64,000 nucleotides of DNA from Candidatus Bathyarchaeia archaeon (GTDB taxonomy: Archaea > Thermoproteota > Bathyarchaeia > Bathyarchaeales > Bathycorpusculaceae), in NCBI GenBank assembly GCA_038727135.1, contig JAVYWL010000003.1, forward strand, positions 1 to 64,000, in the 5' to 3' direction. How positions within the stretch are numbered: the stretch's first letter is position 1; every line of letters starts with the position of its first letter. Below are positions 13,971 to 47,007 of the stretch, piece by piece. The notes beneath the pieces were generated by a model. It was not told the origin of the DNA. It made no database searches and was given only the letters and a program-made list of their open reading frames with translations. Both the position numbers and the translations under genes were made by a program.

Positions 13971-14058
13971 AAACAATTCAGAGTCTACCTTTCTTGCCAC
14001 CTCCCACCTTCATCCAGACAAGCGGAAACCAACGTGTTAAAGAAACTGACGTATTCTG

Positions 14059-14105
14059 CTTTTGGGTTGTTGTGGCGTAAAAATTTTCAACAATAACATT
14101 TGAAG
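14059..14105. repeat. imperfect hairpin repeat right of VapBC
   Basis: CTTTTGGGTTGTTGT...AATTTTCAACAATAACATTTGAAG. Confidence 0.6.
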
Positions 14106-14133
14106 CTAGTAAATGCACGAAGAAACCTCTTTG

Positions 14134-17100
14134 TCATTCTTTAATTGTTTCTTGTTCTGAGGATGATGGTTTTGGCTTTAATTTTTTCTTTATTCGTTCT
14201 AGGATGGCTTTTTTCTTTGCCCAGTCGTAGATTAGGTAGGTGGTGCAGGCGATTAGAGTGGTGGCTGATATTATTGAGCCTATGTAGAACCATTTTTGTG
14301 GTTCGTATTCTATTGTGATTTCTAAGAGGCCTGTCTGGTCTATCCAAAAACCATTTATAATTCCATAAAGGGGGATGCTTCTGATTTTTTTATCATTAAC
14401 ATAGCACATCCATAAGGGATCGTAAGGTTCGGCAAAAGAAAGCATAAAAGGCTCAGTTACATTTATGTAGACCTTCCAGAGAGTTGGATTAATTCTTGAG
14501 TAAGTATCTATAATGCTATCTTTGATTATTATTGTGGAAAGCTGGCTGATTTCTGATAAATCATTGATAACGGTTACTTTCTTTAGGATACTATTTTGAC
14601 TGTCATAATATTTGTGTGTGGGTACAAGCAAGATCTCGTCAATATACCCAGATCCGGAACTGCTTTCTATCTTTATCAAATTAGCGCCTTTTTTCAGCCA
14701 TACCGTATATCTGAACCATTGCAGTATGTTGGAGGTATAGTTTACTTTGATATCACTTGTTTCATTTAAATTGAGTTTAAAGTTCCCTTTGCCTCTAATT
14801 ATTAGCTCATATGAACCCTCTTTGGGGATATTAACTTGGGACGAAAAAGTGTTCGGAGACTCGTCCAGCTTTTGAATTTTAATCTCTTTGAGAATATAAA
14901 ATGAATCCACGTTGTAACTGTGCCTCCAAAATTGCAGTTGAATTAATGTGGGATTTTCAACGTAAAAAATGCCTTCCTCGTAGACGTTTGTGAGGTTAAA
15001 AGGTCTCAGTTCGTTAGGGACGAACCCAAATGGAATGTAGCTTTTGCCCCCTTCCAAAATTTTTAGATGAGGCAAAATGGCGTTTTCTGCTGTTAAGCAT
15101 GCGGAAATTTTGTACCAACCGGCCTCGGTGATGTTTATTGCCATTAAATTGTTGAAAAGCCAGCGTTTTTCTAAGCTTGCGTTATCTTTGAACGAGAAAC
15201 TTTTTTCGCTCTCCATTAGAGTATATCTAACTTTGTTTAGAGGCTTCGATGGGACTAGGGTATATATAATGTCGTCGTTTATTGGTTTATTTGCCTCGTA
15301 GAAAGTCAAATTTCTATTCTTGATAGCTTCTTCAAGTATTAGTCTCCTGTAAGAGTCTGAACCTGCAAGGGCGAATGTTCCAAAAGCCCACTCTTTATGC
15401 GGGTCAACCGACGGAGTGTATAATTGTATTCGTACCGCGTTGTTACCGCCTATTTCCAGGGTTATAAGTCTTTCAATATCTTCTTGATCCACCATTAGAT
15501 TGTTATTTCCATGTAAAAGTAACGCAAGCTCCGAATTCCCAATATTGTTAACATCTATTGGAATCACGTAATCGCAATTAATAAGCCAGCTTAATGGTTT
15601 AGATGTGAGAAGAATCACTCCCTCTAGTGACTTAAACGGTGCTTGTTGCGGTGTGGACAGTTCAACGAATAAATGCATTGGCAATGTTGTGACATTTTTA
15701 TTTCGCAATACATTACATATTAATTGTTCGTACTCGTCATAACGGTCAAGTTTCTGGTTAAAAAGATATCCGTGTATATTAAGCAAACTGGTAATTTTTT
15801 TCAAGGGAGTTTCTTGGTCAGATAGAATCAGCAAGTTTATCTCATCTATTAAGGGCTTATGATTAGTATATGGTAATCCTTTTATCACCAAATATTCAAA
15901 GCTTGGTCTCCAATAAAATGTTTCATTATCCAAGATGATATGTCTTCCTCCAATCTCTGGAAAGAGAACGAATTTCCCGTCCTCCTCATTTTTGTAAGCG
16001 AACAAGTTTAAGGATGACTCGTCTATAGGTTGAAGATATTCAAAACATCCTGAGTAAAATGAATGATTTATCAGCGAAACCATTATAATTATAGATAGAA
16101 AAAGAGAGATAAATGATGTTATCCTAATTTTTTTCCTTCGAATCCTCTCTGTTGCTACGTAAATAACTGCCGGCAACGATAAGGCATAGAAAAAAAGCAG
16201 ATAAAACTCCCATCTGTAAGGAGTTCTGAACATCCAAGCAATGTTTTGCGGTAAATAGGAAAATAGGAAATAGTTCAATCTGATTCCTATGAGGAAAAGA
16301 AATAAAAGCATAGAAGATAATATAAAAAGCATCCCTTTATTTCTTAGAATAATCAGACCTAAAAGAGATAAAATCACAATTATTATTTCAAGCACCCGGA
16401 AACAGTTCACTGAAACTCCATAAAGGGGTTTTAATGGATTATATTGCCACCAATGTTCTTCGAAAGTAATAAAGTTTAAAAAACTACATTTTGAGGAAAG
16501 TAAATCATAGTTTTCTTTGCTTAACGTGTATTGAACATGTCCAACATTCGCAAGCGATAAGATGGGCATAGAAATTAGGAGGAAAACTAGAAAACTCGCT
16601 GCCAGTTTGGCTAACTTGACTAACTTAACTTTAGCGCAAGATAGTTCACGCCTAAAAATAAACACAAACACGATCAAAAGTAGAAAAGGAAGAGCTTGAT
16701 AAACAATGTATCTGAAGTCAAAGCTAAAAGACAACGCTAGCACAACACCATATAAGACCACCAATCTGAATTCGCCATTTGAAAACAAATAGACGAGCGG
16801 AATCAATAAAAAGAGTGGAATGAAAATTGCACCAGCGAATAGTCCAAGATAATTTGCATACACTCTTGAAAACACCCAAATAAACGACCCGAGGGATGAC
16901 ATTAAAGTAAGGGTTTTCAGATTACTTATACCTAACCACTTTCTATAACAGTAGGAAAGGGTTATCGCCATAAGAATGAAGCCAAGCATAGATGTTAGAA
17001 AGTAAAATAAGGCATAAGAATGAAGCAATCCGAAAAGTACGTTTGAAATTATTCTTCTGTTCATGTCGAAATTGGAAGACGACGTGTACTCATTCCAAGT

Positions 17101-17253
17101 ATAGAAGATTGTTTTATAATAATCGCGTGACCAAACAAAGTCCCTGTAAAAATATATAGACGTAGGATTCTCTTCAATCATCATTTTCCAGGTTAGGATG
17201 AAAGCAATAAGAACCCCTAGGACTAAATAAACGTGAAACTCCTTTAATTTCAT
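14134..17253 (-). CDS. large polytopic membrane protein, GT-C-like glycosyltransferase with extracellular domain
   Basis: More than 10 TM segments, FRTPYRW motif, long extracellular region, C-terminal NGFW...EYEPQ + TM; lies in GT cluster. Confidence 0.65.
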   Translation of the reverse strand: MKLKEFHVYLVLGVLIAFILTWKMMIEENPTSIYFYRDFVWSRDYYKTIFYTWNEYTSSSNFDMNRRIISNVLFGLLHSYALFYFLTSMLGFILMAITLSYCYRKWLGISNLKTLTLMSSLGSFIWVFSRVYANYLGLFAGAIFIPLFLLIPLVYLFSNGEFRLVVLYGVVLALSFSFDFRYIVYQALPFLLLIVFVFIFRRELSCAKVKLVKLAKLAASFLVFLLISMPILSLANVGHVQYTLSKENYDLLSSKCSFLNFITFEEHWWQYNPLKPLYGVSVNCFRVLEIIIVILSLLGLIILRNKGMLFILSSMLLFLFLIGIRLNYFLFSYLPQNIAWMFRTPYRWEFYLLFFYALSLPAVIYVATERIRRKKIRITSFISLFLSIIIMVSLINHSFYSGCFEYLQPIDESSLNLFAYKNEEDGKFVLFPEIGGRHIILDNETFYWRPSFEYLVIKGLPYTNHKPLIDEINLLILSDQETPLKKITSLLNIHGYLFNQKLDRYDEYEQLICNVLRNKNVTTLPMHLFVELSTPQQAPFKSLEGVILLTSKPLSWLINCDYVIPIDVNNIGNSELALLLHGNNNLMVDQEDIERLITLEIGGNNAVRIQLYTPSVDPHKEWAFGTFALAGSDSYRRLILEEAIKNRNLTFYEANKPINDDIIYTLVPSKPLNKVRYTLMESEKSFSFKDNASLEKRWLFNNLMAINITEAGWYKISACLTAENAILPHLKILEGGKSYIPFGFVPNELRPFNLTNVYEEGIFYVENPTLIQLQFWRHSYNVDSFYILKEIKIQKLDESPNTFSSQVNIPKEGSYELIIRGKGNFKLNLNETSDIKVNYTSNILQWFRYTVWLKKGANLIKIESSSGSGYIDEILLVPTHKYYDSQNSILKKVTVINDLSEISQLSTIIIKDSIIDTYSRINPTLWKVYINVTEPFMLSFAEPYDPLWMCYVNDKKIRSIPLYGIINGFWIDQTGLLEITIEYEPQKWFYIGSIISATTLIACTTYLIYDWAKKKAILERIKKKLKPKPSSSEQETIKE

Positions 17254-18399
17254 TTATGTCACCAATGTAAAGATCTCCTTAATTTCATTAATGAAAATCT
17301 CTTCTAATGTGGTTTCTGGATGATAATAGGTCAACGTAACCAAACCTTCCTCAATCTCTTTTAGTTTCTGCATCGCAGTATTTGCGAGCTCATGGAAACT
17401 GCCAATTTCAACAAAAGTTACACCGTTCTTCCATTTCTCTAGCAAAGATGGCAGAGCATATGCAACAACGTGCAACCCAAAAACTTTAGCTTCCAGAATA
17501 ACATAAGGAAAGCTATCAGCATACGATGGATATAATAATATCTTTGATCTGCTCATTAAATCATATTTTTCGGCGTCAGACACGCCCCCTTTAAAAGTAA
17601 CTAAGACTTTATCTAATCTAAACTTCATTCTCTCGATTTCTTTTTTAATTCTTCCGAACTCTGGACCTCTTCCAATTATCACCACAGATACTTTTCTATG
17701 AGCCACTTTGTTGATGTAATCCAAAATTTTATCTAGATCGTAAACACCTTTTTCTCTCACAAATCTGGCTATATAAAGAAAATCAATATCCCTTTCATGC
17801 AAGCCTCTTTTCCTTACTCTATTAATGCTTTCAATTTCATTTAGCAGGAAGCTGTTGGTTGTAAGAAAATAATTTTTACTTAACCCAAAGAACTTAATAT
17901 CTAAATTGCTTAAAATAAAAATTTTATCAGCAAAATTTTTTGCAAAAGTTATTCCAATTTTTTCGTTGAATATCATTAAATCATCGGTAAATCTCCTTTT
18001 ATAAGCTGGAAAAGATCTATAAAAAGAGATAGGAAGTTGCTCATATACGATGAGTAGTATCCTTTTATTAAGTAGTATGCGTAAAATAGCTTTTAGTAAA
18101 CTTCCCAACAGCAAGTCATTTCCAAAGTGGGTAAATGGTATAATCACTAGATAGGAGCTATTTTTAGATTTTCTAAGGGTCTTTAAAAAAAAGTAAATAC
18201 TGATAAGCGGGTATAGAGTCAAGTTAAGTAGAATATATAAATACACGTTGTTGCCCGTTTGCAAAGATTTCTTTTTTAAAGTTAAGCAATAGCAATTATA
18301 GCCTTTCGCTTTCAAGAATTCCGCAAATTTTGTCAATCTGATCTCGCCTCCACTTTTTGTGAATTCATTATCCAAAAACGTTGAGAAGAAAACAAACAA
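17254..18399 (-). CDS. GT4 glycosyltransferase
   Basis: SGGE, YIARFVREKG, PSYADSFPYVILEA. Confidence 0.85.
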   Translation of the reverse strand: MFVFFSTFLDNEFTKSGGEIRLTKFAEFLKAKGYNCYCLTLKKKSLQTGNNVYLYILLNLTLYPLISIYFFLKTLRKSKNSSYLVIIPFTHFGNDLLLGSLLKAILRILLNKRILLIVYEQLPISFYRSFPAYKRRFTDDLMIFNEKIGITFAKNFADKIFILSNLDIKFFGLSKNYFLTTNSFLLNEIESINRVRKRGLHERDIDFLYIARFVREKGVYDLDKILDYINKVAHRKVSVVIIGRGPEFGRIKKEIERMKFRLDKVLVTFKGGVSDAEKYDLMSRSKILLYPSYADSFPYVILEAKVFGLHVVAYALPSLLEKWKNGVTFVEIGSFHELANTAMQKLKEIEEGLVTLTYYHPETTLEEIFINEIKEIFTLVT

Positions 18400-18400
18400 T

Positions 18401-19963
18401 CTATTTACCTCGCTTTCTAGCTATGAATAATAGGCTTCTTGGAAATAATTTGCGAAGAAATTTATCTGCAGTGTAAACCGCACGTAATATGGGTTTGTGA
18501 TTGATTTTAGAATACAGAAAATGCGGAAACGTGAAAATCTTCTCAACTCTTATTACATCGAATCCGTGCATCATTAACTCTCTCTTGAAAGCTCCCTCGG
18601 ACACCAAGTTAGCCAAGATGAAATATCGTCCCATTTTTTCGCCCGATAAAAGGTAAATGAGGGGTACGGTGAGAGAGCCTATCAAGTAAAATGGATTAAA
18701 TTTATTGGGCATCTCTACGATCAAGTATCCATTGTCTTCCAGCACACTGACGATGTTTCTTAATGCTTGCTTCCTGTTATTAACATATTTGAAACTTCTG
18801 AAGGCGAAAACCAAATCATATTTGTAAGGTAACTTGATTCTTTCAACATCCCCGCAAATTACATGTAAACCTTCAAATCTCTCCACTAAGGATTTGCAAG
18901 CCACTTCTGAAACATCTTGAGCCGTAACTTCAAATCCAGCTTTTGTGAATTCTTTAACCCACCTTCCACCGCCACTACCAATTTCAAGAACCTTTATCTT
19001 CCTACCATCAAATATGCTCTTTATAATACTCAAAACCGATTCTCTTTCAATGAAATCGACAAATTGATTGCCTAGAGTACCATAATACATCTTCTTCTCA
19101 TAAAATAATGCGTCTTTCTCAAACTCTGCCTTGGCATCTATTGTTAACCTCTGAATCTTCGGATCAAGCGATCCCGAAAGCATACCTAGACGAAATGTCA
19201 CGAATTCTACACTCTTAAGGAGCAGAAGCATTAAAGCCTTAGTTTTAGAATACTTAAAAGCATTAGATAATAACTTTAGCCTATGGCTAAACGATAATTG
19301 TCTTTTTACAAAAACTTCATTCTTGTGCTTATTTTTGTAATAAACAAAAAATTTTCCATGCTTAAATTTCTTGAGAGGTCTGAATGCAGGTTCGCTTAAA
19401 AAGAACTTGGATTTAACCCTACATACCTTGAGCCCAAACTTTGCTGCATTTAAATAGAAGTCATACTCATCAGGGCCTTCATTTTTTTCATCGAATAAAA
19501 CCTTGTCAAAGATCCGTTTCCGATAAGCTCTTGGCGACTCAATGACGTCAACTCCCTCATAGATTTTCTTCTCAATATTTTTACATTTAGTCATGAAGTC
19601 TTTGCCTAGATATTCTTCAGGAATTACAATAGCATCGCATCTTTCTTCAACAAAACATTTTACAATTTCTTCAACCAATAATTGTTCAAAAATATAGTCA
19701 GCATCAGCTAGAATAACATATTCGCCCTTACTTTTTAAAATCCCAATGTTTCTTGCAGATGGTTTGTTAAAGCATCCTTCTATGACATTGACTCCATACT
19801 TTTTGGCAATGGAAACAGTCTCGTCGGTAGAGCCCCCGTCAACCACTATGATCTCAATGTTTGGATACGTCTGAGCCTTAATTGACTGCAAACACTTATC
19901 AAGAAACCTTGCAGAATTCAACGTTGGAATAACGATAGAAACTAACGGACTAAACTCCCTCAC
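18401..19963 (-). CDS. GT2 glycosyltransferase fused to class I SAM-dependent methyltransferase
   Basis: VSIVIPTLN, VVDGGSTD, DAD; C-terminal VLEIGSGGG motif I. Confidence 0.85.
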   Translation of the reverse strand: MREFSPLVSIVIPTLNSARFLDKCLQSIKAQTYPNIEIIVVDGGSTDETVSIAKKYGVNVIEGCFNKPSARNIGILKSKGEYVILADADYIFEQLLVEEIVKCFVEERCDAIVIPEEYLGKDFMTKCKNIEKKIYEGVDVIESPRAYRKRIFDKVLFDEKNEGPDEYDFYLNAAKFGLKVCRVKSKFFLSEPAFRPLKKFKHGKFFVYYKNKHKNEVFVKRQLSFSHRLKLLSNAFKYSKTKALMLLLLKSVEFVTFRLGMLSGSLDPKIQRLTIDAKAEFEKDALFYEKKMYYGTLGNQFVDFIERESVLSIIKSIFDGRKIKVLEIGSGGGRWVKEFTKAGFEVTAQDVSEVACKSLVERFEGLHVICGDVERIKLPYKYDLVFAFRSFKYVNNRKQALRNIVSVLEDNGYLIVEMPNKFNPFYLIGSLTVPLIYLLSGEKMGRYFILANLVSEGAFKRELMMHGFDVIRVEKIFTFPHFLYSKINHKPILRAVYTADKFLRKLFPRSLLFIARKRGK

Positions 19964-20032
19964 TAGCCAATAACCTCAGTATTTTTATGAATTCTTCCGC
20001 TGTTTTGTCCCAGCTATATTGCAAATTTTCAT
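19950..20032 (-). pseudogene. deletion scar of a GT4 gene (start fused to last codons)
   Basis: ATG AAA ATT TGC overlapping the upstream stop, joined out of frame to QYSWDKTAEEFIKIL, which matches the C-terminus of GT4 20838-21944. Confidence 0.7.
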
Positions 20033-36102: not shown

Positions 36103-37452
36103 ATGAATGAAGCAGAAAAATTTTCTGGTTATAGAGGTGAGGTGTTAGAAGCTATTAGACGGGCTGGTGCTGAGGTTGGCGATTTTGTTCGCATTGTTAA
36201 GGCTGGTCAAGTGTATGAGGGTATTCTTATTCCGCGTTCTGAGTATGGCGATGACCGGCATATTGTGATTAAGTTGCGGAGTGGCTACAACATTGGTGTT
36301 CGCCTAACCCCAGACGCCAAAGTTGAGAAGGTTGGAAGGGGCGAGAAGCCGGCTTTTGTTGCTCCGCCCTTGCCAGAGCAGAATCCAGCCTTGCCAAAAG
36401 TCTCTATTATTAGTACTGGCGGCACCATTGCCAGTCGTGTGGATTATCGTACTGGTGCTGTCCGTCCCGCTTTGTCTGCCAGCGACCTATACAGTGTCGT
36501 GCCAGAATTAGCCGACATAGCCCGCATAGACGCGCAGATACTCTTTAGTCTTTACAGCGAAAACATTACGCCAGCCCACTGGGCGGAGATGGCTAAAACA
36601 GTTGCGGAAAAAATCGCTGAAGGCGTGAACGGCGTTGTCATAGCCCATGGAACAGACACTATGGGCTATTCGGCTGCAGCCCTAAGCTTCGCATTGCAAA
36701 ACCTTCCAGTCCCAGTGATTTTTGTTGGTTCTCAGCGTTCAGCAGACCGCCCCAGCTCAGACGCAGCCACAAACCTGACTGGTGCGGTTTTAGCCGCTGC
36801 CAAGGCGCCCTTCGCAGAAGTAGCCGTAGCCATGCACGAGACAATTTCTGACACAGTCATAGTGCTTCACCGCGGCACTAAGGTGCGCAAGTGTCACACA
36901 AGTCGCCGTGACGCCTTCAAATCAGTAAATGCTCAGCCGTTAGCAAAGGTTGAGGAAAACCGTGTTGTTATGCTCACGGAAGATTATCGGAGGCGGGACC
37001 CATCGCGGAAGCCCGTTGTAAAGCCGAACTTCAGCGACAAAGTAGCCCTAATCAAGTTTTATCCCGGCATGGACCCAGCCATAATAGACTGGCATGTAGA
37101 TAAGGGCTACAAGGCAATAGTCCTTGAAGGCACTGGCTTGGGGCACGTTTCAAACCGCCTCTTCCAACCAATAAAGCGGGCTGTTAATAAGGGCGTACTG
37201 GTGGCTATGGCTTCCCAGTGCATCTGGGGACGAGTAAACATGAACGTCTATGATACTGGCAGAGACTTGCTGGCTCTTGGCGTAATACCGCTGGAGGACA
37301 TGCTGGCGGAAACAGCCACCGTCAAACTCATGTGGATATTCGGACAGACCGACGACCCAGAAGAGGCAAAAAAGCTCCTAAAAACAAACATCGCCGGAGA
37401 ATTCTCCCAACGAACACTCCACGAAGAAATGCGGGAGGAAACCAGACAGTGA
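36103..37452 (+). CDS. gatD: Glu-tRNA(Gln) amidotransferase subunit D
   Basis: SGYNIG N-domain, TGGTIAS, HGTDT, SQRSADRPSSD. Confidence 0.97.
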   Translation: MNEAEKFSGYRGEVLEAIRRAGAEVGDFVRIVKAGQVYEGILIPRSEYGDDRHIVIKLRSGYNIGVRLTPDAKVEKVGRGEKPAFVAPPLPEQNPALPKVSIISTGGTIASRVDYRTGAVRPALSASDLYSVVPELADIARIDAQILFSLYSENITPAHWAEMAKTVAEKIAEGVNGVVIAHGTDTMGYSAAALSFALQNLPVPVIFVGSQRSADRPSSDAATNLTGAVLAAAKAPFAEVAVAMHETISDTVIVLHRGTKVRKCHTSRRDAFKSVNAQPLAKVEENRVVMLTEDYRRRDPSRKPVVKPNFSDKVALIKFYPGMDPAIIDWHVDKGYKAIVLEGTGLGHVSNRLFQPIKRAVNKGVLVAMASQCIWGRVNMNVYDTGRDLLALGVIPLEDMLAETATVKLMWIFGQTDDPEEAKKLLKTNIAGEFSQRTLHEEMREETRQ

Positions 37453-39353
37453 CAGACGAAATAGACTATGGGCGAATAGGCTTAAAAGTGGGCTTGGAAG
37501 TCCACCAGCAACTAGAAACGCAGACGAAGCTTTTCTGCAGCTGCAAACCAGAACTCTTCAAAGAAGAACCAGAAATCACCTTCCTAAGGCGCTTGAGACC
37601 AACCCAAAGCGAACTCGGACAAATAGACCCAGCCGCCTACTTCGAATTCCAAAAAGGAGTAAAAATCCTATACGAGGCTGACAGGCACACTGCCTGCCTA
37701 GTAGAAATGGATGAGGAGCCACCCCACCCGCTGAACATGGAGGCTGTTGAAATAGCCCTAACAGTGGCTTTAATGATGAACGCCACGCCAGTAGACGAAA
37801 TCCACGTCATGCGCAAGACAGTCATAGACGGCTCCAACACGACGGGTTTCCAACGCACATGTATCATAGCCCTAAACGGCTCAATAAAAGTTGGCCAAAA
37901 AACAGTCCCAATACAGCACATAAGCCTAGAGGAGGACGCAGCCAGAAAAACAGGCGAGGAAGGCACAACCATGCGCTACCGCATAGACCGACTGGGCATA
38001 CCACTGATCGAAATCGCCACAGCGCCGGTCATAAACACGCCAAAGGAGGCTGGCGAAGTAGCCCTAGCCATAGGCAAGATTCTCCGAGCCACCCAACGAG
38101 TAAAACGTGGATTGGGCACAATACGCCAAGACCTAAACATATCAATAAACGGCGGAGCCCTAACAGAAATAAAGGGCGTCCAAGAACTCGAACTGATCCC
38201 GCTGGTTGTCGAATACGAGGTGCAAAGGCAACTAAACCTGATGAAAATAAGCGAAGAACTTAGAAAAGCGGGAGCCAGCCCGGAAGCCCTAAAAGAAGAA
38301 TTTTTCAATGTAACGGAGGTTTTCCGCCAAACAGCCTGCAAGGTAATCCGAAAAGCCCTAGAAAAGGGACATGTAGTTTTAGCCGTAAAACTGCCAAGGT
38401 TTGGAGGTTTCCTAAAGCGCGAGCTTATGCCCGGCATACGCCTAGGCACAGAAATGGCTGACCGCGCAAGGTTCTGGGGACGAGTCGGCGGAATATTCCA
38501 CACCGACGAGCTCCCAGCTTACGGCATAACAAATCAAGAAGTTGAAGCCTTGAAAAAGGCGGTGGACGCCCAAGAACAAGACGCAGTGGTATTTGTAGCT
38601 GACACGCTGGAAAATGCTGAAGACGCTTTAAGGGCTGTTTTGGAAAGAGCAAAAGAAGCCATAAAAGGCGTGCCAGAAGAAACCAGAGCCGCAAACCCGG
38701 ATGGAACAACCCGTTACATGCGCCCAAGACCAGGGGCCGCCCGCATGTACCCAGAAACTGACATTCCACCCATACAAGTGACGGAAGAACTCATAAACTG
38801 CATCCGCCAGCGCCTACCAGAACTCCCAGAGCAAAGGCTTGAGAGGCTTATGCGTGAATACGTACTAAACCAGAAGCTAGCCAAACAGCTCATGGATTCA
38901 GAATACACAGAACTCTTCGAAACCATAGCCAAAGAAAGCAAAGTCTCACCAACAACAGTGGCTGTCTTCCTAACAGAGACTATGAAAGCCCTAAAACGCG
39001 ACGGCCTACCAGTCGAAAAAGTTTCAGAAGCAAAAATAAGAGAAGTCTTCAAAGCCCTTGGAGCCGGGGAAATCACGAAAGAGGCTCTTCCAGACATAGT
39101 TGCTTGGCTTTCAAAAAATGAGGAGAAAACTGTGAAGGAAGCTATTGAAAGCCTAGGATTAAAGACTATGCCGAAAGAAGAGCTGGAAAAAATAATAGAC
39201 GACACCATAGCAAAAAACAAGGATTTAATCGAAAAGAGCGGGGCAAAAGCCTTCGGCATAATCATGGGGATTGTCATGAAAGAAGTTAGGGGTAAAGCCA
39301 ACGCCGAAATCGTCAGCGAGCTAATCAAGCAGAAGTTGGCAAGAAGGGCTTAG
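37449..39353 (+). CDS. gatE: Glu-tRNA(Gln) amidotransferase subunit E
   Basis: GLKVGLEVHQQL, DGSNTTGFQRT, RMYPETD; GTGA overlap with gatD. Confidence 0.97.
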   Translation: MTDEIDYGRIGLKVGLEVHQQLETQTKLFCSCKPELFKEEPEITFLRRLRPTQSELGQIDPAAYFEFQKGVKILYEADRHTACLVEMDEEPPHPLNMEAVEIALTVALMMNATPVDEIHVMRKTVIDGSNTTGFQRTCIIALNGSIKVGQKTVPIQHISLEEDAARKTGEEGTTMRYRIDRLGIPLIEIATAPVINTPKEAGEVALAIGKILRATQRVKRGLGTIRQDLNISINGGALTEIKGVQELELIPLVVEYEVQRQLNLMKISEELRKAGASPEALKEEFFNVTEVFRQTACKVIRKALEKGHVVLAVKLPRFGGFLKRELMPGIRLGTEMADRARFWGRVGGIFHTDELPAYGITNQEVEALKKAVDAQEQDAVVFVADTLENAEDALRAVLERAKEAIKGVPEETRAANPDGTTRYMRPRPGAARMYPETDIPPIQVTEELINCIRQRLPELPEQRLERLMREYVLNQKLAKQLMDSEYTELFETIAKESKVSPTTVAVFLTETMKALKRDGLPVEKVSEAKIREVFKALGAGEITKEALPDIVAWLSKNEEKTVKEAIESLGLKTMPKEELEKIIDDTIAKNKDLIEKSGAKAFGIIMGIVMKEVRGKANAEIVSELIKQKLARRA

Positions 39354-39356
39354 GCT

Positions 39357-40058
39357 TTATCTGTACTTTTCCAGTGGAATTACTTTCTCTTGCACAGGCT
39401 TTAGGGTTTCACCACAGTACGGGCAGATTTTAAACTCTGGAAGTATGGGTTTGCCACATGCGAAACAAACCTTCGGATAATGAAGTTTCTCCTCAAAGCT
39501 CTTAATCTCCCTTTTCAGGTGGCTTAACTCAGCCTTAATTTTTTCCAAGCCCTCCTTTAGGGGCTGAATTTCCTTAACTTCGGCGCGAATGTTGTAGATT
39601 ACATCCTTAACGTGGGATAAGATTTCGTTATTCATTTCAACGGTCTCGTTCATGGCGTCTAACAACTCGCTTTTCTGTTCTAAAAGTTGGGATTCAACCG
39701 TGCTCTGTTTTTTTGCGTCAGAGAGCACCTTGTTTAGGAAGGCTTCAACGGGGTTTTGGAAGGCTATGGCGCATGTTATGCCCCACAATATGAAGGTGGC
39801 TGTGGCGCTTATGAGGAAGTATATGGGCGGCGTTATAACCTCAAGCTTTTCTTTGGCTACCGGATAGAGCTGTAGGAGAACTATGGGTTTGTTGAAGAAT
39901 AGGGCGTTTGCGGCGTCGATTAGGTGGGCTGCTGCTATAGCTGTTAGTGTGCTGAAAATCCAGACGCCCATTCCCTTTTTTGTCAAGGCGTTTGCCTCTT
40001 CATTTGAATAGTGCATCTTAATATTTAATATGATATTTCCGCCTCCGAAATATATCAA
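39357..40058 (-). CDS. two-TM coiled-coil protein with C-terminal zinc ribbon
   Basis: TM helices, heptad region, CFAC...CPYC; start uncertain. Confidence 0.7.
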   Translation of the reverse strand: MIYFGGGNIILNIKMHYSNEEANALTKKGMGVWIFSTLTAIAAAHLIDAANALFFNKPIVLLQLYPVAKEKLEVITPPIYFLISATATFILWGITCAIAFQNPVEAFLNKVLSDAKKQSTVESQLLEQKSELLDAMNETVEMNNEILSHVKDVIYNIRAEVKEIQPLKEGLEKIKAELSHLKREIKSFEEKLHYPKVCFACGKPILPEFKICPYCGETLKPVQEKVIPLEKYR

Positions 40059-40101
40059 AACACGTAAATTCTAAAAGGAGAACACCACCAATCATATAGG
40101 T

Positions 40102-40617
40102 GTGATAGGTTTGAGTGGGAAGGCGGCGGCGAAACCACCGGAGGGAGAATTTTCATTCCGCGTTAAGGTCGGCGACTACGAGGTTGAAGTGAAGGGTTTA
40201 AAGGACGACGTATTGGAGACTATTCGCGAATTGCCAAACCTCATGCCGGAAGTCAGCAGAGCCTTCGAAAACCTAAAGCCAAAAAACGCAGCCACAGTCA
40301 TTGTTAAGACTCCTGTTTCAACGGTTAAGGAGGAACCCCCAATGGAGAAGTACCCAAAAATTCCAAAGGTGGAGAACTGTAGCGAAGCCATTCTAAAAAT
40401 TCTTGAAAGCGACTGGGGTAAGTGGCGTCCAAGAACTCTAGCAGAGCTTAAGGCTGCTTTGACAGCCAACAACCTACATTTTCCGGGGCGAACTTTGGCT
40501 GGGGACCTTTTGGGTCTTGTGCAGAAGGGCGTTGTTAGGCGTTGGAAAACTGATAAGGGTTATGTTTACATCCTAGCCGAAAGGGAGGTTTTAGCCCAAA
40601 AGGAGGAAACAGCGTGA
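40102..40617 (+). CDS. beta-hairpin + winged-helix protein (type A1)
   Basis: FRVKVGDYEVEVKG N-terminus; PRTLAEL...LVQKGVVRR wHTH. Confidence 0.8.
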   Translation: MIGLSGKAAAKPPEGEFSFRVKVGDYEVEVKGLKDDVLETIRELPNLMPEVSRAFENLKPKNAATVIVKTPVSTVKEEPPMEKYPKIPKVENCSEAILKILESDWGKWRPRTLAELKAALTANNLHFPGRTLAGDLLGLVQKGVVRRWKTDKGYVYILAEREVLAQKEETA

Positions 40618-41087
40618 AAAGAGTTGAAGTTCACATTAAGACATCTTTCGGCGAGATAGTTGTTGAGGGAGAAAACCCCCAAGAAGTTTTAAGCCTACTG
40701 GAGGCTTTTCCAAAGGATTTTGTGGAAAACATTTCAAACATGGTTTCCAGCAAACTTGTCCCATCAGCGGCGGTCCAACTGAGAGGCATAATAGAGTTTA
40801 CCACTGAAGGTCCTGTGCTTGTCGCGCGTGAGAGGCTTACCCATTATGAGGCTATCGGGCTTATACTATACGCCTCTGAAAGTAGGCAAAACACGGCCAC
40901 ACAAATCCAGAAGCTTCTAGAGTCCAGCGGAATAAAATGCATGGTTCCAGCCCGCCTCAATGAGATGGTTAAGCGTGGTCAAGTGTTTAAGCCAGACCCG
41001 AAGAGGCCGGAGTTTAAGTTGACTGTTCAAGGCGAGAGATGGATTGAGGATGAGGTTTTAGCCAAGCTTAGAGGGAAGATGGCTTGA
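40614..41087 (+). CDS. beta-hairpin + winged-helix protein (type B1)
   Basis: VHIKTSFGEIVVEG; ARLNEMVKRG...FKLTVQG. Confidence 0.8.
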   Translation: MKRVEVHIKTSFGEIVVEGENPQEVLSLLEAFPKDFVENISNMVSSKLVPSAAVQLRGIIEFTTEGPVLVARERLTHYEAIGLILYASESRQNTATQIQKLLESSGIKCMVPARLNEMVKRGQVFKPDPKRPEFKLTVQGERWIEDEVLAKLRGKMA

Positions 41088-41596
41088 TAAGCCACCAGAA
41101 GCAGATAGCGGTTCATGTGAAGTATGGTGATGCTGAATACACTTTCTCTGGCAGTGTTGAAGAGGTTTGGGCTGCCCTAAACAAGTTTTTCAGCGAGTTT
41201 ATCCCAGCCTTCCAAATAGCGAAGGCTCTGGTTTTGAGTGTTGACTTGCAAAGGCTTGCTGAAGACTGTAAGGGTTTGATTGGCTTTGCCGATAACCTGC
41301 CGCACTTGTTGGTTTCTAAGGAAAAGTTGACAGACAATGAGACTTTGGCACTGCACCTCTTAGCCGCCCATCTGGGGTTTAGGCTTGGCATGCTGAAAAC
41401 GGATGTTCTAACAAGGGAGGAACTTCAAGCCAAGCTGGGCAAGAATCCGAAGATAACCAGCACACGCCTCGGCGAGCTTGTTAAGGCTGAAATAGCCGAG
41501 AAAACAGGTGAGGGCAGCTATCGCATAACAAGCTTTGGTATTGTGCAGATGCAGAGGGAATGGCTCCCAAGAATTAAGGCTAAGTTAGGCTTGTAG
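41084..41596 (+). CDS. beta-hairpin + winged-helix protein (type B2)
   Basis: VHVKYGDAEYTFSG; TRLGELVK...YRITSFG. Confidence 0.8.
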   Translation: MISHQKQIAVHVKYGDAEYTFSGSVEEVWAALNKFFSEFIPAFQIAKALVLSVDLQRLAEDCKGLIGFADNLPHLLVSKEKLTDNETLALHLLAAHLGFRLGMLKTDVLTREELQAKLGKNPKITSTRLGELVKAEIAEKTGEGSYRITSFGIVQMQREWLPRIKAKLGL

Positions 41597-42205
41597 GAGT
41601 TTTTCTTCATCCTTAACTATTTCGTCTGAGCATAGGTATGCGACTAGTTTTTGGCTTATAACTGGTGTTCCATTCTTCAGCGGGTAAGCGTATGGCAGAT
41701 AAACCTCAGCATACTCGTTCAGCCTCAAAGTTAAGCCCTTTTTAACGGGTATTTTTTCCAGTGGTTTTCCTTCGCTTGCAAGCTTTGCCACATAAACGGC
41801 TCCGTCAATGGAGAATTGGGCTTTTCCGATGTTTCGAACAGTGGCTTTTGGAAAATGCTTTGTTAAGAGTTTGCCTGTTCTACCTTTCGGCGGGTAGTCG
41901 CCCAAAATTCCGCCGATGATAATGGTCGTTTTTCCAATAAAGTCTTCTGGTTTTAGTGGAAGTTTGGCTTTTGGGTCTAGAATTATGACTTCTTCTGGAT
42001 TGAAGATTTCTGCGGCGCTTTTCTCTTCAACGGTACCGAGCCTTGAAAGTTTTGCTTTGTCGCTTTCTTTTTTGACATTGGTGAAGATTAAGCGATTTTT
42101 TCCAACGATTTCAGAAGCATGCATATACTCATAGAGGAGCCACTTGCCAATTTCTTGTTCCAAGTGTTCAATCACGAAGATTGGCTTAATGGTGCATTTT
42201 TGCAT
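41585..42205 (-). CDS. Sfm1/DUF431-like SPOUT methyltransferase
   Basis: FVIEHLE...WLLYEY, LDP, GGILGDYPPKGRT, QFSIDGAV. Confidence 0.8.
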   Translation of the reverse strand: MQKCTIKPIFVIEHLEQEIGKWLLYEYMHASEIVGKNRLIFTNVKKESDKAKLSRLGTVEEKSAAEIFNPEEVIILDPKAKLPLKPEDFIGKTTIIIGGILGDYPPKGRTGKLLTKHFPKATVRNIGKAQFSIDGAVYVAKLASEGKPLEKIPVKKGLTLRLNEYAEVYLPYAYPLKNGTPVISQKLVAYLCSDEIVKDEEKLLQA

Positions 42206-42309
42206 GGCAAGTCACATTTGGCTCTTGTTGTATTTATGGCGGTTTTTGGTTTTCAAGCGTTTCCTTTTTATGTACCAGCATGCACTATGGTGAATGTCGA
42301 GGGTGAGTC

Positions 42310-43206
42310 TTGACGGCTTCAAGGAAGCTCTATTATTTTCTTTTCGCTGTTGCCATACTTGTTTTGCTTTGGATTTTAACCCTTCCAGCCATACTGCCAG
42401 AAGATATACGCAAGGCGTACTTAACCTACTTCAACATTATCAGGGCGATAACAATTGTTGTTTTTGGAGCCTTAGCCCTTGAACTGGTGGCTTCGGTCAT
42501 AACTCGTAGGCTTAAACATTTGGGCAGAGAAGTATACCTCATTAGGAACGTTATCCTCGTCGTCGGTTATGTGGTTATTGGGCTTATGATTTTGGCGGTT
42601 TTTGAGGTGACGGGCATAACTGCAGTTGCAGGCGCCACCGTCTCCGGTCTCATAATTGGTTTGGGCTTACAGCCCATACTGGCGAACTTGTTTGCAGGCT
42701 TAATCATTCTTGGAACAGGCTTCCTCAGACCAGGAACAGAGGTGAAGATTTCTGGCGGTTTGCCACTGTCCGCTGTGGCTTTCCCAGCCTATAAAATGTT
42801 TAGCAGGGACGAGTTTATGCCAACATTGAGGGGAGTTGTGATGGAGGTGGGACTTCTCCACACTAAAATCTTGTCTGACGGCGGAGAAATTGTGAAAATC
42901 CCCAACAATTTGGCTTTCTCCAACAGCGTTGTCATGGAGGAGAAGGAAGAGCCAAAAACAGTCCGCGTGCGATACGAGTTTCCAGTGGAATACGACCCAG
43001 ACAATGTGCTGGCTAAACTCCAGAAGGCTTTAGGCAAAAGCTTCCAAGATTTTAGGGTTTACGTCGAAGAGCAAAGCGACAAAAACTACTACATCGTCCT
43101 AGTAGTGGCAAAAACCCCACCAAACGTGAAAGTGAGAGAGTTCCGGTCAGAAATCCTGAAACAAATAATAAAGGTTCACAGAGAGCTGAACAAAGAGCAA
43201 AAGTAA
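42310..43206 (+). CDS. MscS mechanosensitive channel family protein
   Basis: IIGLGLQPILANLFAG, IPN motif. Confidence 0.85.
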   Translation: MTASRKLYYFLFAVAILVLLWILTLPAILPEDIRKAYLTYFNIIRAITIVVFGALALELVASVITRRLKHLGREVYLIRNVILVVGYVVIGLMILAVFEVTGITAVAGATVSGLIIGLGLQPILANLFAGLIILGTGFLRPGTEVKISGGLPLSAVAFPAYKMFSRDEFMPTLRGVVMEVGLLHTKILSDGGEIVKIPNNLAFSNSVVMEEKEEPKTVRVRYEFPVEYDPDNVLAKLQKALGKSFQDFRVYVEEQSDKNYYIVLVVAKTPPNVKVREFRSEILKQIIKVHRELNKEQK

Positions 43207-43516
43207 TCATAAGTGTTCCGCCGCCATTTTTTGGAAATATACAATTTAGGAAGCTTTCAATTGTTAAATTGATAGCCCCTCTATAGATTTTTGGCTTATT
43301 GATTGATAGCTATTCTTCCATGAAAGGTTTTGCACTATAGTAAGACGCGCCCGCTCCCATGAGGAATATGATGAAAGCTATTATTAATACGAATCACTGG
43401 TTCTAAAAACAGCTAACAGTATCGCGAAAGTCATTAGGAAAAGGGCGAGTATCATTATGGGCACTTTGCGGGTGCGGATATAAGCGTTCCAAACCAAGCG
43501 CACGCACCATTAAAAC

Positions 43517-43921
43517 TTATGGTGGTGGTCTTTTTTGTGCGTATCGGTATCTTCGGGGTTTTCCGTCTCTTGTTAGGATGCCGTCTTTAACTAGGTCTAT
43601 TAGGGCGTGGGCTACCGCCGTCCGGTCGTAGTGGAACCCGCGTTTTGCCATTTCGCTATGGACTTCGCTTAGGGTTTTTGGTGTGGCGAACCAGCCTTCT
43701 TCCCATAGTTTTTGTATGACTCCTTTGCATGTTTCTGCTCTTGGGGGTGGTGGTTGGCGTTCTGTTAGGGCTAGTGGCGCCTGTTTCAGTTTTTCTGTTA
43801 CCGTTGATAGTATGCGGTCCACTGCTGCTTGTAGTTGTTCTTCTTGGCATTCTATTTCGAATTCTATGTCACCTACTCGCATTTTTACTCGTATGGGTGG
43901 TTTTTGTGGTGGTTGTGTCAA
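43517..43921 (-). CDS. beta-hairpin + winged-helix protein (type A2)
   Basis: RVKMRVGDIEFEIE; PKTLSEV...LVKDGILTR; TTG start after GGTGA. Confidence 0.8.
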   Translation of the reverse strand: MTQPPQKPPIRVKMRVGDIEFEIECQEEQLQAAVDRILSTVTEKLKQAPLALTERQPPPPRAETCKGVIQKLWEEGWFATPKTLSEVHSEMAKRGFHYDRTAVAHALIDLVKDGILTRDGKPRRYRYAQKRPPP

Positions 43922-44071
43922 TTTTTCACCTTGTTGAATATTGAATTGTGCATCTTGTTCATGCACAACACTTATATATCCCTGCCGCCAACAACTGCAT
44001 GTTGGTGAATCTTGGTGATTGAACAATACACTATAACAGCAACACCAAAATATAATTTTCCACAATCAACC

Positions 44072-45109
44072 ATGGACTTAACGCTACCCCAACGCTTCAT
44101 AGAACTAAGCCTCCACTCACTAAAACACATGCAAAACCAAACCTTTCAACTAAACCAACAAACAATTCAACAAACCGCCAACAACCCAAGCCAAGAACCC
44201 CTATACGCCATTCTAAACAACAGCCTAAAACCCATACCACTAACACCAAGGACAGAGGAAACAACAATAGCCGCGGTGGACACATCAAGCATCAAGCTGG
44301 GCGAAACAAGCACAGGAATAATAACAGCCATCCGCGGAACATGCATATGGAAAAGGGGCAAAAGCTACGCTTATCTGCGCATAGGACCCTTCATATTCCA
44401 CATAACAGAAGAAAATCTAAAAGATGTTTATAGGGCGTTGCAAGCCGCCTATTTCCCAGAGCAAGGCGAAAGCCAAGGCACACCAAACATTATGCAGACA
44501 CCAGTGCGGATGGCAAACCTACTGGAAAAGTGGCTCCAACAAACCCTAACAAAAACCGTCAGTAATGGGCTAATACTTTTTGACGGCTCTTTGACGGCGG
44601 GAACACCAGACACACCGACAAGCCAGCTGAAGGAAATCCTAAACAATGCCAGGGCGGCGGGCAACACTGTTTTGGCTTTTTCAAAAATGACCACTTTAAG
44701 GTTTAATGGCTACCTAATAACTGACACGCTAATAACCCAAAAACCTCCATGCATAATCGCCATCCCAAACATCAAGCCTAAACCGCCAACAGTTCTGCTG
44801 GGCGAAGTTTATGTAGCGAAATTAACACGAGGGAACTGCACCTTTAGGCTTGACATAGATAAGGAAACACCACCAGAAAAACGAGTGGAGGCTGTTGAAA
44901 GGCTCATTGGAAACGACTTGGTGACGCAGAGCTATCCGGAAACCCTACGTTTAGCGCATATCCTCTGCACTTTTACGGCAAACGAGGTCATAGCCATGCA
45001 ACACTTTATCCAGCACCGTTACCGCCTGAAAATCATCGAGCGTCCAGACATGCACCGGCTTTTGTTCGGACCCTTTGGGAAGGGGGAAAGCCACAGTGAG
45101 GCTTTATAA
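44072..45109 (+). CDS. nurA: NurA-family nuclease
   Basis: AAVDTSS, LFDGSL, AFSK, FRLD, YPETLRLAH; start uncertain. Confidence 0.8.
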   Translation: MDLTLPQRFIELSLHSLKHMQNQTFQLNQQTIQQTANNPSQEPLYAILNNSLKPIPLTPRTEETTIAAVDTSSIKLGETSTGIITAIRGTCIWKRGKSYAYLRIGPFIFHITEENLKDVYRALQAAYFPEQGESQGTPNIMQTPVRMANLLEKWLQQTLTKTVSNGLILFDGSLTAGTPDTPTSQLKEILNNARAAGNTVLAFSKMTTLRFNGYLITDTLITQKPPCIIAIPNIKPKPPTVLLGEVYVAKLTRGNCTFRLDIDKETPPEKRVEAVERLIGNDLVTQSYPETLRLAHILCTFTANEVIAMQHFIQHRYRLKIIERPDMHRLLFGPFGKGESHSEAL

Positions 45110-46574
45110 AAAAGAGGGCAACATAGTCCAAATCCTAAGCTTCCCGAATGAAACCGCAGAAAAAGGCGATTACCTACTAATTGAAGATGCCGAATCCCAA
45201 AAAGCCCTAATAGTCCAAGTAATAGATATACAATTCGCAAACATACCAGGCGTCTTGGAAGAGCTTTTACGCAGTCTCCCAGACGGCGGCGAAATAATCC
45301 AAGGCGAAGATGTTGATCCGCTGGAAATAGCGCCCCACATAACCTACATACAAGATTCTAAGCTTTTAATCTGCAAGATTCGCGCAACGGTTGAGGGCGG
45401 CGAAAGCCTAAGCCCAAGCAGTTCCTGGCTTCCATCCCGGTCGCAGTCCACCATCAAAAGGCTTCCAATTTCAACTTTGCTAAAGCTGGCAAGGGTGGAC
45501 GGAAAACTCCCAATAGTTTTAGGCACCACAAAAGAGGCTTCGCTTCTAACCGTGGATGCTTCAGCCTTGGATGGACGCCTAAACATAATAACTGGCAAAA
45601 AGGAGACAGGCAAGTCGCACCTTTCAAAGTTATTAATAACAGCGCTGCTTCACTACGGCGCCACGGTCGTCGTCTTAGACCTGAACGGCGAGTATGCGGG
45701 TTTGGGCATGACTTCAGATGGGAAAAGAAACGCCTACTACCATAAGGTTCATGTTTTGACGCCTTCCCAAAACTTTAAGGTTGCCCTAAAACAGCTCCAT
45801 CTCAACGAGCTAATGAATATTCTTATTCACGCATTGCACCTGCCTGGAACATCAGCCCGCGAGTTTCGCCGGATATGGCAGTCTTTAAGGGAGCGGAACG
45901 CCCTAACCCTCAACGAGCTTGGGGAAGCCATCCGCAACTGGCACTGCAACCAGAACGTACGTGACGCGCTTTTTTCACGCTATTATGCTATGGTTAATTC
46001 CGGCTTTTTCACAGACAACATGGCAGAAGCCACACTTTTGGAGGAGTGCTTGTCAAAGGCAAAAGATGAAGGCGGAGCCATAATAATCAATCTTCGGGAC
46101 ACATCCACCATTGATAGGCAAATAGTTGTGGAGTATCTTCTCGGAAAACTTGTCGAGCTATTATCAAGTTGGAGGCTTAGGGCTGTTTTCCTATTCGCCG
46201 AGGAAGCCCACCTATATCTGCGGGAAACCTACTGGGACGACATTGTAACTCGGATGCGCCACTACGGCATATTCACAACCTTCATAACAAACCAGCCCGA
46301 CACAATACGGGAAAACATTTACCGCCAAGCAGACAACATATTCCTCTTCAACTTCACCAACGAACACGACCTAGAAACAGTCTCCCGCGCGGCACGAGTA
46401 GACGCGGAAACAGTAAAATCCATAGCCATGGACCTGCCGCCCCATCACTGCCTAGTGCTCGGCAAAATTGTAAAAGACTTCCCAATAGTCGTTAAAGTCC
46501 GAGCCTTAGACGTAAAAACTATGGGGGAAACCCGCCTATTCTTCACAGACGCAAAAATCAAGAACACGAATTAA
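45096..46574 (+). CDS. herA: HerA-like ATPase/helicase
   Basis: HAS-barrel-like N-terminus, GKKETGKS, LDLNGEY, EEAH, RMRHYG, ITNQP. Confidence 0.85.
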   Translation: MRLYKKEGNIVQILSFPNETAEKGDYLLIEDAESQKALIVQVIDIQFANIPGVLEELLRSLPDGGEIIQGEDVDPLEIAPHITYIQDSKLLICKIRATVEGGESLSPSSSWLPSRSQSTIKRLPISTLLKLARVDGKLPIVLGTTKEASLLTVDASALDGRLNIITGKKETGKSHLSKLLITALLHYGATVVVLDLNGEYAGLGMTSDGKRNAYYHKVHVLTPSQNFKVALKQLHLNELMNILIHALHLPGTSAREFRRIWQSLRERNALTLNELGEAIRNWHCNQNVRDALFSRYYAMVNSGFFTDNMAEATLLEECLSKAKDEGGAIIINLRDTSTIDRQIVVEYLLGKLVELLSSWRLRAVFLFAEEAHLYLRETYWDDIVTRMRHYGIFTTFITNQPDTIRENIYRQADNIFLFNFTNEHDLETVSRAARVDAETVKSIAMDLPPHHCLVLGKIVKDFPIVVKVRALDVKTMGETRLFFTDAKIKNTN

Positions 46575-47007
46575 GCTTTTCAAGCCTTGGCATGTTCCGC
46601 TGGAGGAAAGCTCTCAAAGTCTTTGTCAAATCGTATTTTTCCGCCTCAGCCAAAGGAACCCAGCGGAGTTCTGCGGCGTCGTCCGCCGCCCGCATTTCTC
46701 CACCCTTAAGCTTCACAAAATAGTCTATTATGACGAAGTGGTATTTCACCTCGCCATTTTCGTCTCGGACAATATTGTCAACAACATCAATAAGCTCCGG
46801 ATCAGCCACAACTAGCCCTGTCTCCTCCTTAACCTCGCGGATAACGGCGTCTTCCGCCCTCTCACCAAGCTCCACCAAACCGCCAGGAACACTCCACTTA
46901 CCCCTACCAGGCTCGCCCTTACGCTTTTCCAACAAAATTTTCCCGTCACAGATTATTATGGCTCCTACGCCGACCACCGGTTGGCTTGGATAAAAGCGCC
47001 GAACCAC
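46558..47007 (-). CDS. Nudix hydrolase
   Basis: GGLVELGERAEDAVIREVKEETG Nudix box. Confidence 0.95.
   Translation of the reverse strand: MVRRFYPSQPVVGVGAIIICDGKILLEKRKGEPGRGKWSVPGGLVELGERAEDAVIREVKEETGLVVADPELIDVVDNIVRDENGEVKYHFVIIDYFVKLKGGEMRAADDAAELRWVPLAEAEKYDLTKTLRAFLQRNMPRLEKLNSCS

Follow-up and report, generated by a model that had tools for sequence, protein, structure and literature searches.

NurA and HerA form a core archaeal machine for DNA end resection. To our knowledge, its recruitment and regulation are largely unknown beyond a few thermophile models, especially when the pair is not encoded together with Mre11-Rad50. In FtsK, the gamma subdomain binds the FtsK orienting polar sequences (KOPS) and directs the motor, according to the accessible part of PMC2680272. 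Here we analyse a stretch of 64,000 nucleotides from a Candidatus Bathyarchaeia archaeon (GenBank assembly GCA_038727135.1, contig JAVYWL010000003.1, positions 1 to 64,000 of the forward strand), referred to as the window, in which four small paralogous genes, A1, B1, B2 and A2, share a neighbourhood with a nurA-herA pair. A preliminary description of the window, made from its letters alone, had proposed the four products as a heteromeric DNA-binding complex. Our reading, to which we give a probability of roughly 60%, is that the family serves NurA-HerA, with A2 acting as a regulator of divergent transcription and A1, B1 and B2 as co-expressed DNA-binding accessory factors.

Within the literature searched, winged-helix paralogs beside NurA-HerA are an undescribed family. 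A search for HerA or NurA with winged-helix, Bathyarchaeota or Caldarchaeum partners found no such description (arCOG annotations lay outside its scope), and the accessible parts of PMC7554672, PMC13748450, PMC4158269 and PMC2643942 do not describe winged-helix partners of NurA-HerA. The terms "helix-turn-helix", "Bathyarchae" and "Thaumarchae" are absent from one of these, a 2026 review of NurA (PMC13748450), whose accessible part names no such partner.

A paralog family adjoining NurA-HerA

The genes under study and the control region between two of them are as follows.

40102-40617, + strand: A1, an open reading frame of 171 amino acids (aa), member of the A1 orthologous group
40614-41087, + strand: B1, an open reading frame of 157 aa, member of the B1 orthologous group and the best conserved of the four
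41084-41596, + strand: B2, an open reading frame of 170 aa, placed in the B2/B3 clade by a tree and an alignment of 53 clade members
43517-43921, - strand: A2, 134 aa with a TTG start, member of the A2 orthologous group
43922-44011, no strand: divergent A2/nurA control region of 90 bp, predicted from sequence and alignment
44012-45109, + strand: NurA-family nuclease of a divergent subtype, 365 aa
45075-46574, + strand: HerA-like ATPase of the FtsK/HerA superfamily, 499 aa, Pfam DUF87, overlapping nurA

BLASTP relates A1 to A2 (E 3e-11, 23% identity, 153 columns) and B1 to B2 (E 3e-6, 30% identity, 84 columns), and finds no similarity between A and B (E 22). When the profile of the A1 family (34 sequences) was compared with that of the B1 family (47 sequences), the match had a probability of 96% and an E value of 4.8e-9 over 134 columns. 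Because this match spans both domains, all four proteins are homologous along their whole length, as judged by profile. Searches with the A- and B-family profiles found exactly four members in the window's genome (1.55 Mb).

Across genomes, members of this family recur next to NurA-HerA. We hand-picked 40 loci of at most 15 kb each from the A1 and B1 hit tables to span family-level groups (collected loci carry L numbers below), and 31 of them contain a NurA-HerA pair, nearly always directly adjoining family genes. Conversely, 13 of 16 loci picked via HerA orthologs have family members adjoining, typically in the order HerA-NurA / A2 / B-B, and two of the three misses end at contig ends. The gene order varies. 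B-B-(B)-A1-NurA-HerA on one strand was found in L013, L014, L015, L024, L025 and L042, B-B-NurA-HerA in L037-L040, L043, L046 and L048, B-B / A2 / NurA-HerA in L053-L064, and a compact B-A1 / A2 / NurA-HerA in L020, L021 and L052; in some lineages the family reading frames overlap nurA-herA tightly. At least two different paralogs are present in 42 of the 44 loci that have both NurA-HerA and a family member. The preliminary description had asked for a check of synteny; the family and NurA-HerA are neighbours in many lineages and in several gene orders.

Five family-bearing genomes have no ortholog of the window's NurA or HerA. In the four whose loci were examined, the family's neighbours are a DUF87 ATPase and a NurA that is canonical by Pfam (E 1e-14 to 1e-23), and the link thus spans two NurA-HerA subtypes. 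That the family exists without NurA-HerA is rejected for these four genomes.

Some loci depart from the common layouts. L015 (949-6236) holds two tandem NurA-HerA pairs, one of the window's subtype and one canonical, and it is the window-type pair that adjoins family genes. In L018 (5023-6428), as well as in L019, L022 and L027, up to five tandem winged-helix-only open reading frames of ~85-109 aa lie between nurA and B1-A1, in the position that A2 has in the window. These loci belong to three other Bathyarchaeia family-level groups, and the small frames give weak MarR/TrmB/IclR-type and weak B-profile matches.

A2 and the control region shared with nurA

A2 is probably the local transcription regulator, a role that the preliminary description did not consider. 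A genome-contig search with A2 gave 474 relatives, and 80 Bathyarchaeia loci were collected via A2; of the 68 with enough upstream DNA, 67 have nurA in divergent orientation to A2. The A2 frame is open up to 44065, and an alignment with 10 orthologs favours the TTG at 43921 as its start. The A2-nurA spacer measures 90 bp in the window, with a modal length of 90-91 bp.

This spacer carries a perfect palindrome, TGTGCAT-N7-ATGCACA (43947-43967), beside a TATA-like box, TTATATAT, at ~43971-43978. A second palindrome, CCAACA-N6-TGTTGG, lies at ~43988-44005, between the TATA-like box and the nurA start. When the window is aligned with 79 Bathyarchaeia loci, the palindrome/TATA block ranks among the best conserved parts, and its variants retain palindromic arms. 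The palindrome has a single site in the window and a single site in the genome. In distant lineages the same spacer has a TATA-like box followed directly by TGTTG(C/T)GCA-type repeats; a strict TATA + TGTTG(C/T)GCA pattern has 31 sites in 761,831 bases (56 loci), 13 of them no more than 50 bp from an A2 or nurA start. Among 11 orthologs the A2 winged helix hardly varies (HYDRTAVAH...QKRPP), which fits a conserved operator. We propose that A2, probably as a dimer, binds the palindrome of the 90-bp divergent promoter and would thereby control its own gene and nurA-herA; the palindrome is a concrete predicted operator.

The A1-B1-B2 operon and a fused ATPase

Start and stop codons overlap by 4 bp at both junctions of this operon, with GTGA (40614-40617) between A1 and B1 and TTGA (41084-41087) between B1 and B2, each preceded by a Shine-Dalgarno-like purine run. 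A strongly conserved promoter-like block, ACGCGTAAATTCTAAAAGGAG, lies ~25-35 nt upstream of the A1 start (40060-40101) across 49 distinct sequences and probably drives an A1-B1-B2 transcript with a short leader or none. On reading the alignment of the region upstream of A1-B1-B2, neither a palindrome nor an A2-type element was seen.

B1 is strongly conserved: the best 120 of 3625 homologous clusters are 76-100% identical and 155-163 aa long. All B clades carry a common (A/S)RLxE(L/M) motif in helix 3 rather than diverged recognition helices. Since separate orthologous groups are kept, the frames overlap, B1 is highly conserved and the helix-3 motif is common to the B proteins, the comparisons favour a role for A1, B1 and B2 as accessory subunits or adaptors over one as independent regulators. 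Co-produced from overlapping frames, these putative DNA-binding accessory factors may target, load or restrain HerA-NurA on DNA, acting in trans as the winged-helix gamma domain does for FtsK. Their N-terminal hairpin domains would mediate assembly of the paralogs, possibly into a hetero-oligomer.

A natural fusion offers a lead in the same direction. The 466-aa protein encoded at L044:6773-8173 (- strand) consists of a DUF87 ATPase followed by a coiled coil and a C-terminus of the B1 type, and its B1 part is 35% identical to the window's B1 (BLASTP E 1e-18). The idea that such ATPase-B1 fusions are common was rejected, as a clear B1 part occurred only in the query among the 150 best representatives, a few others having weakly similar C-terminal winged helices. 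The fusion gene sits among housekeeping genes, including those for prolyl-tRNA synthetase and pyruvate:ferredoxin oxidoreductase.

In one hot-spring metatranscriptome, 44 reads matched at 90-100% identity in the orientation expected for stranded libraries. They cover four blocks, namely a zinc-ribbon gene upstream of A1, A1-B1-B2, a methyltransferase gene downstream of B2, and nurA-herA; none fell on A2 or on a channel gene that lies between the methyltransferase gene and A2. These few reads suggest, if only faintly, that a close relative transcribes the genes. The other three of the four raw-read runs yielded no reads and count neither way.

Domain architecture

The AlphaFold2 model of B1 has a mean predicted local distance difference test score (pLDDT) of 88.8, with strands at 4-10 and 13-19, helices at 22-31 and 36-47, a winged helix at ~77-136 and a C-terminal helix at 138-156. 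That of A1 has a mean pLDDT of 76.6, with strands at 17-23 and 26-32, helices at 34-42 and 44-56, and a winged helix at 93-158. The two domains of A1 are joined by a linker with pLDDT <50 at 62-79, predicted free of helix and strand over 57-92; the B1 linker is shorter and has a conserved G-P strand. The winged-helix parts of both models (77-136 in B1, 93-158 in A1) have pLDDT >90 and show the three-helix helix-turn-helix (HTH) core and beta-hairpin wing of the fold. In all four proteins the N-terminal part is acidic (isoelectric point, pI, 4.9-6.0) and the winged helix basic (pI 9.2-9.8); in A1 the values are 5.0 and 9.2.

Structure searches placed the C-terminal domain among known winged helices. 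Residues ~70-157 of B1 gave VIA-align Z scores of ~10 (9-10.7) to MarR/PadR/AspA-type winged helices, with a root-mean-square deviation of 2-3 Å over ~80 residues, and the Foldseek lists for B1 and A1 held winged-helix proteins only; the types returned by VIA-align and Foldseek were MarR, PadR, AspA, Sso10a, the Fur DNA-binding domain and BlaI. In sequence-profile searches of the PDB, the A-family profile matched the BlaI-like 2g9w at E 9.3e-4; the matches were marginal and to winged helices only, with none for the N-terminal domain. In the ESM Atlas, whole B1 matched unnamed Bathyarchaeota clusters only, and its N-terminal 58 residues gave no usable match.

In the Pfam and NCBIfam scans, none of the four proteins reached the cut-off of any model. 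Pfam gave nothing for A1, B1 and B2, and NCBIfam nothing relevant; the best Pfam match of the quartet was Penicillinase_R on A2 (16.0 bits vs a cut-off of 22.6), and Pfam membership in MarR, PadR or Penicillinase_R failed for all four. A complex prediction for B2 with B1, made with an own alignment for each and without controls, scored 0.02 and 0.01 vs a mark of 0.32, and speaks neither for binding nor against it.

Much of the preliminary description is borne out by these results. It had read four open reading frames with 4-bp overlaps at the A1/B1 and B1/B2 junctions, which are present at those positions, and had paired A1 with A2 and B1 with B2, in agreement with BLASTP. The N-terminal beta-hairpin-helix and C-terminal winged HTH that it had read from the letters agree with the AlphaFold2 models and with the full-length profile alignment. 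Its view of the proteins as uncharacterised and outside any named system holds in that no Pfam, NCBIfam or PADLOC family matched. The Foldseek matches are confined to the winged helix, and no named regulator family rose above its cut-off in the sequence scans.

Spread and orthologous groups

The spread of the family was examined within the phylum. A1 has 519 homologous clusters, of which the named ones are all "hypothetical protein" of Bathyarchaeia, and the 3625 clusters of B1 were obtained at E<=1e-3, the named ones again all being "hypothetical protein". With single-sequence queries, A1 was detected in 105 of the 201 genomes sampled from the class, and B1 in 78 of the 301 from the phylum. 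Profile searches add members in family-level groups that single-sequence queries missed, and one such group carries the label Candidatus Caldarchaeum, taken from the sources of an identical protein. In a tree built from 142 members, we distinguish the clades A1, A2 and B1 and a B2/B3 clade with subgroups, which makes five orthologous groups. The two type A and two type B proteins of the preliminary description are thus what the window contains, and the ancestral set was larger. The family is old and undescribed.

Identity of the NurA and HerA genes

We assign the gene at 44012-45109 to the NurA nucleases on several sequence comparisons. The window's protein reaches E 0.0038 and 17.2 bits against Pfam NurA, below the 21-bit cut-off, and 23 of 29 aligned relatives match that model, the best at 1.1e-10. 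The profile of its family aligns to the Sulfolobus NurA 2ygk over the DGSL and GYP..L..AH motifs (E 0.043). Residues D90, E172, D191 and H316, which we take to be the catalytic residues of NurA, are invariant or nearly so in the family.

The gene at 45075-46574, paired with nurA, is assigned to HerA within the FtsK-HerA ATPase superfamily by its Pfam DUF87 match (60.6 bits vs a cut-off of 23.2); weak PDB matches to TdpA and Sulfolobus HerA were also found. It represents a divergent subtype, since the NCBIfam equivalog models for canonical HerA score far below their cut-offs. Orthologs at E<=1e-20 occur in 100 of 301 genomes of the phylum. In PADLOC, A1, B1, B2, A2 and NurA were unmatched and HerA matched only generic HerA and mad8. 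Membership in an anti-phage defence system with HerA was rejected: no accessory protein had a PADLOC match, and the cluster is widespread and lies beside gatDE.

Other end-processing and motor genes were seen in passing. The best match to a Sulfolobus Rad50 model in the window's genome lies on another contig, at C1:281168-283246, in three pieces on one 703-aa open frame; its best E value is 5.2e-23, and it is far below the model cut-off. Elsewhere in the same genome, between metabolic genes at G000:C1:12610-16369 (L149:5611-9370), another DUF87 ATPase of 626 aa precedes a protein of 635 aa without a Pfam match.

Other genes of the neighbourhood

The remaining features of this part of the window are listed here.

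36103-37452, + strand: gatD, confirmed by Pfam
ending at 39353, + strand: gatE, confirmed by Pfam
39357-40058, - strand: coiled-coil/zinc-ribbon gene, divergent from A1, with all Pfam zinc-ribbon matches below cut-offs
41585-42205, - strand: SFM1-like (arginine) methyltransferase gene, convergent to B2
42310-43206, + strand: MscS-type channel gene
46558-47007, - strand: Nudix gene

These neighbours are as the preliminary description had stated, with gatDE (by Pfam), a divergent zinc-ribbon/coiled-coil gene, nurA-herA divergent from A2, and core genes around them. The 3' end of B2 overlaps the convergent methyltransferase gene by 12 bp (41585-41596). The guanine-plus-cytosine fraction drops to 0.335-0.37 at 14001-20000 of the window and is ~0.45 elsewhere; this low stretch may be the island from which the quartet had been set apart.

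The product of 39357-40058 matches Pfam DZR_2 at 6e-5, below the cut-off, and has two hydrophobic stretches when read by eye. Seven of the 11 short loci from the window's own family-level group (f1) have the zinc-ribbon gene, as do many of the Bathyarchaeia loci collected via A2; it is absent from the more distant loci L013-L052. It cannot be a core partner, because it was not found beside the family in any of these distant loci, and gene-order comparison places it as a peripheral, lineage-restricted neighbour outside the conserved core. The gatD-gatE pair adjoins the family in distant lineages too, in many loci (among them L014, L015, L017-19, L022, L027, L029, L030, L049-51, L053, L055 and L066), and thereby makes up a second neighbourhood that recurs.

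B1 lies in the downstream flank of A2 in 38 of 59 loci. Between A2 and B2, some loci have a methyltransferase gene with or without an MscS-type gene, and others have neither. Because these genes are variably present there, the split layout of the window is best read as a local insertion into a contiguous cluster: in the window's lineage, the methyltransferase and MscS-type channel genes would have split an ancestral cluster between B2 and A2.

Weighing the explanations

Several points weigh against the reading that the family serves NurA-HerA. The loci were chosen by us and many of the genomes are kin, and the counts are therefore descriptive, not independent samples. Nine of the 40 A1/B1 loci have no NurA-HerA nearby, among them the window's own type of A1-B1-B2 operon beside gatDE. 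In L030/L068 and L049/L065, NurA-HerA and A2 lie elsewhere, with the B genes ~40 kb or more, or one contig, away; in L023, L029 and L035 no NurA-HerA pair was found. Loci without the pair are explained in part: in L051 HerA is on another contig, in L017 a NurA match lies far off on the same contig, L045 is a contig of 4.7 kb, and L044 holds only the ATPase-B1 fusion protein. In L057, the third miss among the HerA loci, the 838 bp of sequence that extend past nurA contain no A2. The reversed control of the palindrome pattern occurs twice per strand at up to one mismatch, and the weight of the palindrome therefore lies in its position and conservation only, not in its uniqueness. The N-terminal hairpin domain is unmatched in structure by Foldseek and VIA-align with the A1 and B1 models. 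As for the fusion, it is confined to one cluster of the 150 best representatives, and the window's HerA is only a distant relative of its ATPase (3e-6). Lastly, winged-helix proteins encoded beside an operon are mostly plain transcription factors.

All four proteins may accordingly be ordinary homodimeric transcription factors of the MarR/PadR type, with no enzyme contact and no hetero-complex. Their winged helix resembles that of MarR/PadR/BlaI-type regulators, A2 is divergent from its likely target with a conserved palindrome in the spacer, regulators are often the first genes of the operon that they control, and the complex prediction for B2 with B1 gave nothing usable. Yet two to five paralogs are kept as orthologous groups beside one two-gene target across classes, which is unusual for regulators, and the helix-3 motif is common to the B clades when it might have diverged. 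Family genes also overlap nurA-herA tightly in several lineages, and the region upstream of A1-B1-B2 has a conserved promoter-like block with no palindrome or A2-type element seen. We regard this explanation as possible, if rather unlikely. Very improbable, in our judgement, is a lineage-specific complex for chromatin, segregation or DNA organisation that is independent of NurA-HerA, with the neighbourhood an inherited gene order. The window and its close relatives do have A1-B1-B2 beside gatDE and apart from nurA-herA, the adjacency to gatDE recurs in distant loci, and full-length B1 has weak Foldseek matches to the tandem-winged-helix SMC partners MukE, Nse1/3 and JetB (E ~0.01, TM-score ~0.3). 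But adjacency to NurA-HerA survives several rearrangements and a change of subtype, an outcome not expected from passive synteny, and the examined loci showed no gene for an SMC or kleisin protein next to the family. The kite-type matches are themselves weak, and in its secondary structure the N-terminal domain differs from a winged helix. A membrane-tethered DNA-binding complex with the divergent transmembrane/coiled-coil/zinc-ribbon protein is hardly credible: the divergent arrangement is conserved in the f1 group and in many Bathyarchaeia loci, but the zinc-ribbon gene is beside the family in none of L013-L052.

The last two of these functions had been raised as options in the preliminary description. 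The generic chromatin option receives little support, given the persistence of NurA-HerA adjacency through rearrangements and subtype change, and so does membrane tethering, for which the proposed partner gene is found in f1 and Bathyarchaeia-labelled loci and in no distant one. Another of its options, a loader for NurA-HerA, is favoured by comparative genomics through synteny in several gene orders; the co-assembly through the hairpins that it proposed is hypothetical. A specific form of that option would make the A and B paralogs a hairpin-assembled, hetero-oligomeric DNA-recognition adaptor that orients the HerA hexamer and NurA dimer on ends or sites, and we hold this to be doubtful. If true, it would be a trans-acting counterpart of FtsK gamma and, in these lineages, a stand-in for the end recognition usually ascribed to Mre11-Rad50; motors of the FtsK-HerA type would then have a novel kind of loader, conserved in Bathyarchaeia, Caldarchaeales and further lineages of the phylum.

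On the reading that the family serves NurA-HerA, it provides a conserved and sizeable set of candidate partners or regulators of that pair, with 3625 clusters for B1 alone, in the very abundant uncultured Bathyarchaeia and in Candidatus Caldarchaeum. Since genomes carry several paralogs, a hetero-oligomeric adaptor that serves an FtsK-HerA-type motor is conceivable.

Comparison with known systems

The C-terminal 80-90 residues are a winged helix like those of MarR, PadR, AspA and BlaI, and the B-type trailing helix is as in PadR and AspA. The proteins differ from these regulators in that the winged helix is C-terminal and follows an unmatched hairpin-plus-two-helix domain, and in that they come as sets of two to five paralogs tied to NurA-HerA. 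BlaI and MecI have an N-terminal winged helix and a C-terminal dimerisation domain, with BlaR1 or MecR1 as sensor-protease partner. A BlaI/MecI-type repressor was rejected for the present family, whose domain order is reversed and whose neighbourhood holds no sensor-protease gene.

Kite proteins of SMC complexes (MukE, ScpB, Nse1/Nse3 and JetB), which have tandem winged-helix domains and bind a kleisin, are likewise small winged-helix proteins, and serve as oligomeric accessory subunits of a DNA-handling ATPase. Here, in contrast, the N-terminal part has the order strand-strand-helix-helix where kite proteins have another winged helix, neither a kleisin nor an SMC gene was seen as a neighbour in the examined loci, and the Foldseek matches are weak. 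The gamma subdomain of FtsK resembles our proposal as a winged helix that serves a motor of the FtsK-HerA superfamily, and the L044 fusion has the same order of motor, linker and winged helix. The proteins described here differ in being separate and in having an extra N-terminal domain, and the comparison is one of analogy only. The archaeal NurA-HerA end-resection module is matched in that the genes for a nuclease of the NurA family and an ATPase of the HerA family overlap as a pair. Where the herA-mre11-rad50-nurA operon of thermophiles sets this pair beside Mre11-Rad50, its conserved neighbours here are the winged-helix paralogs.

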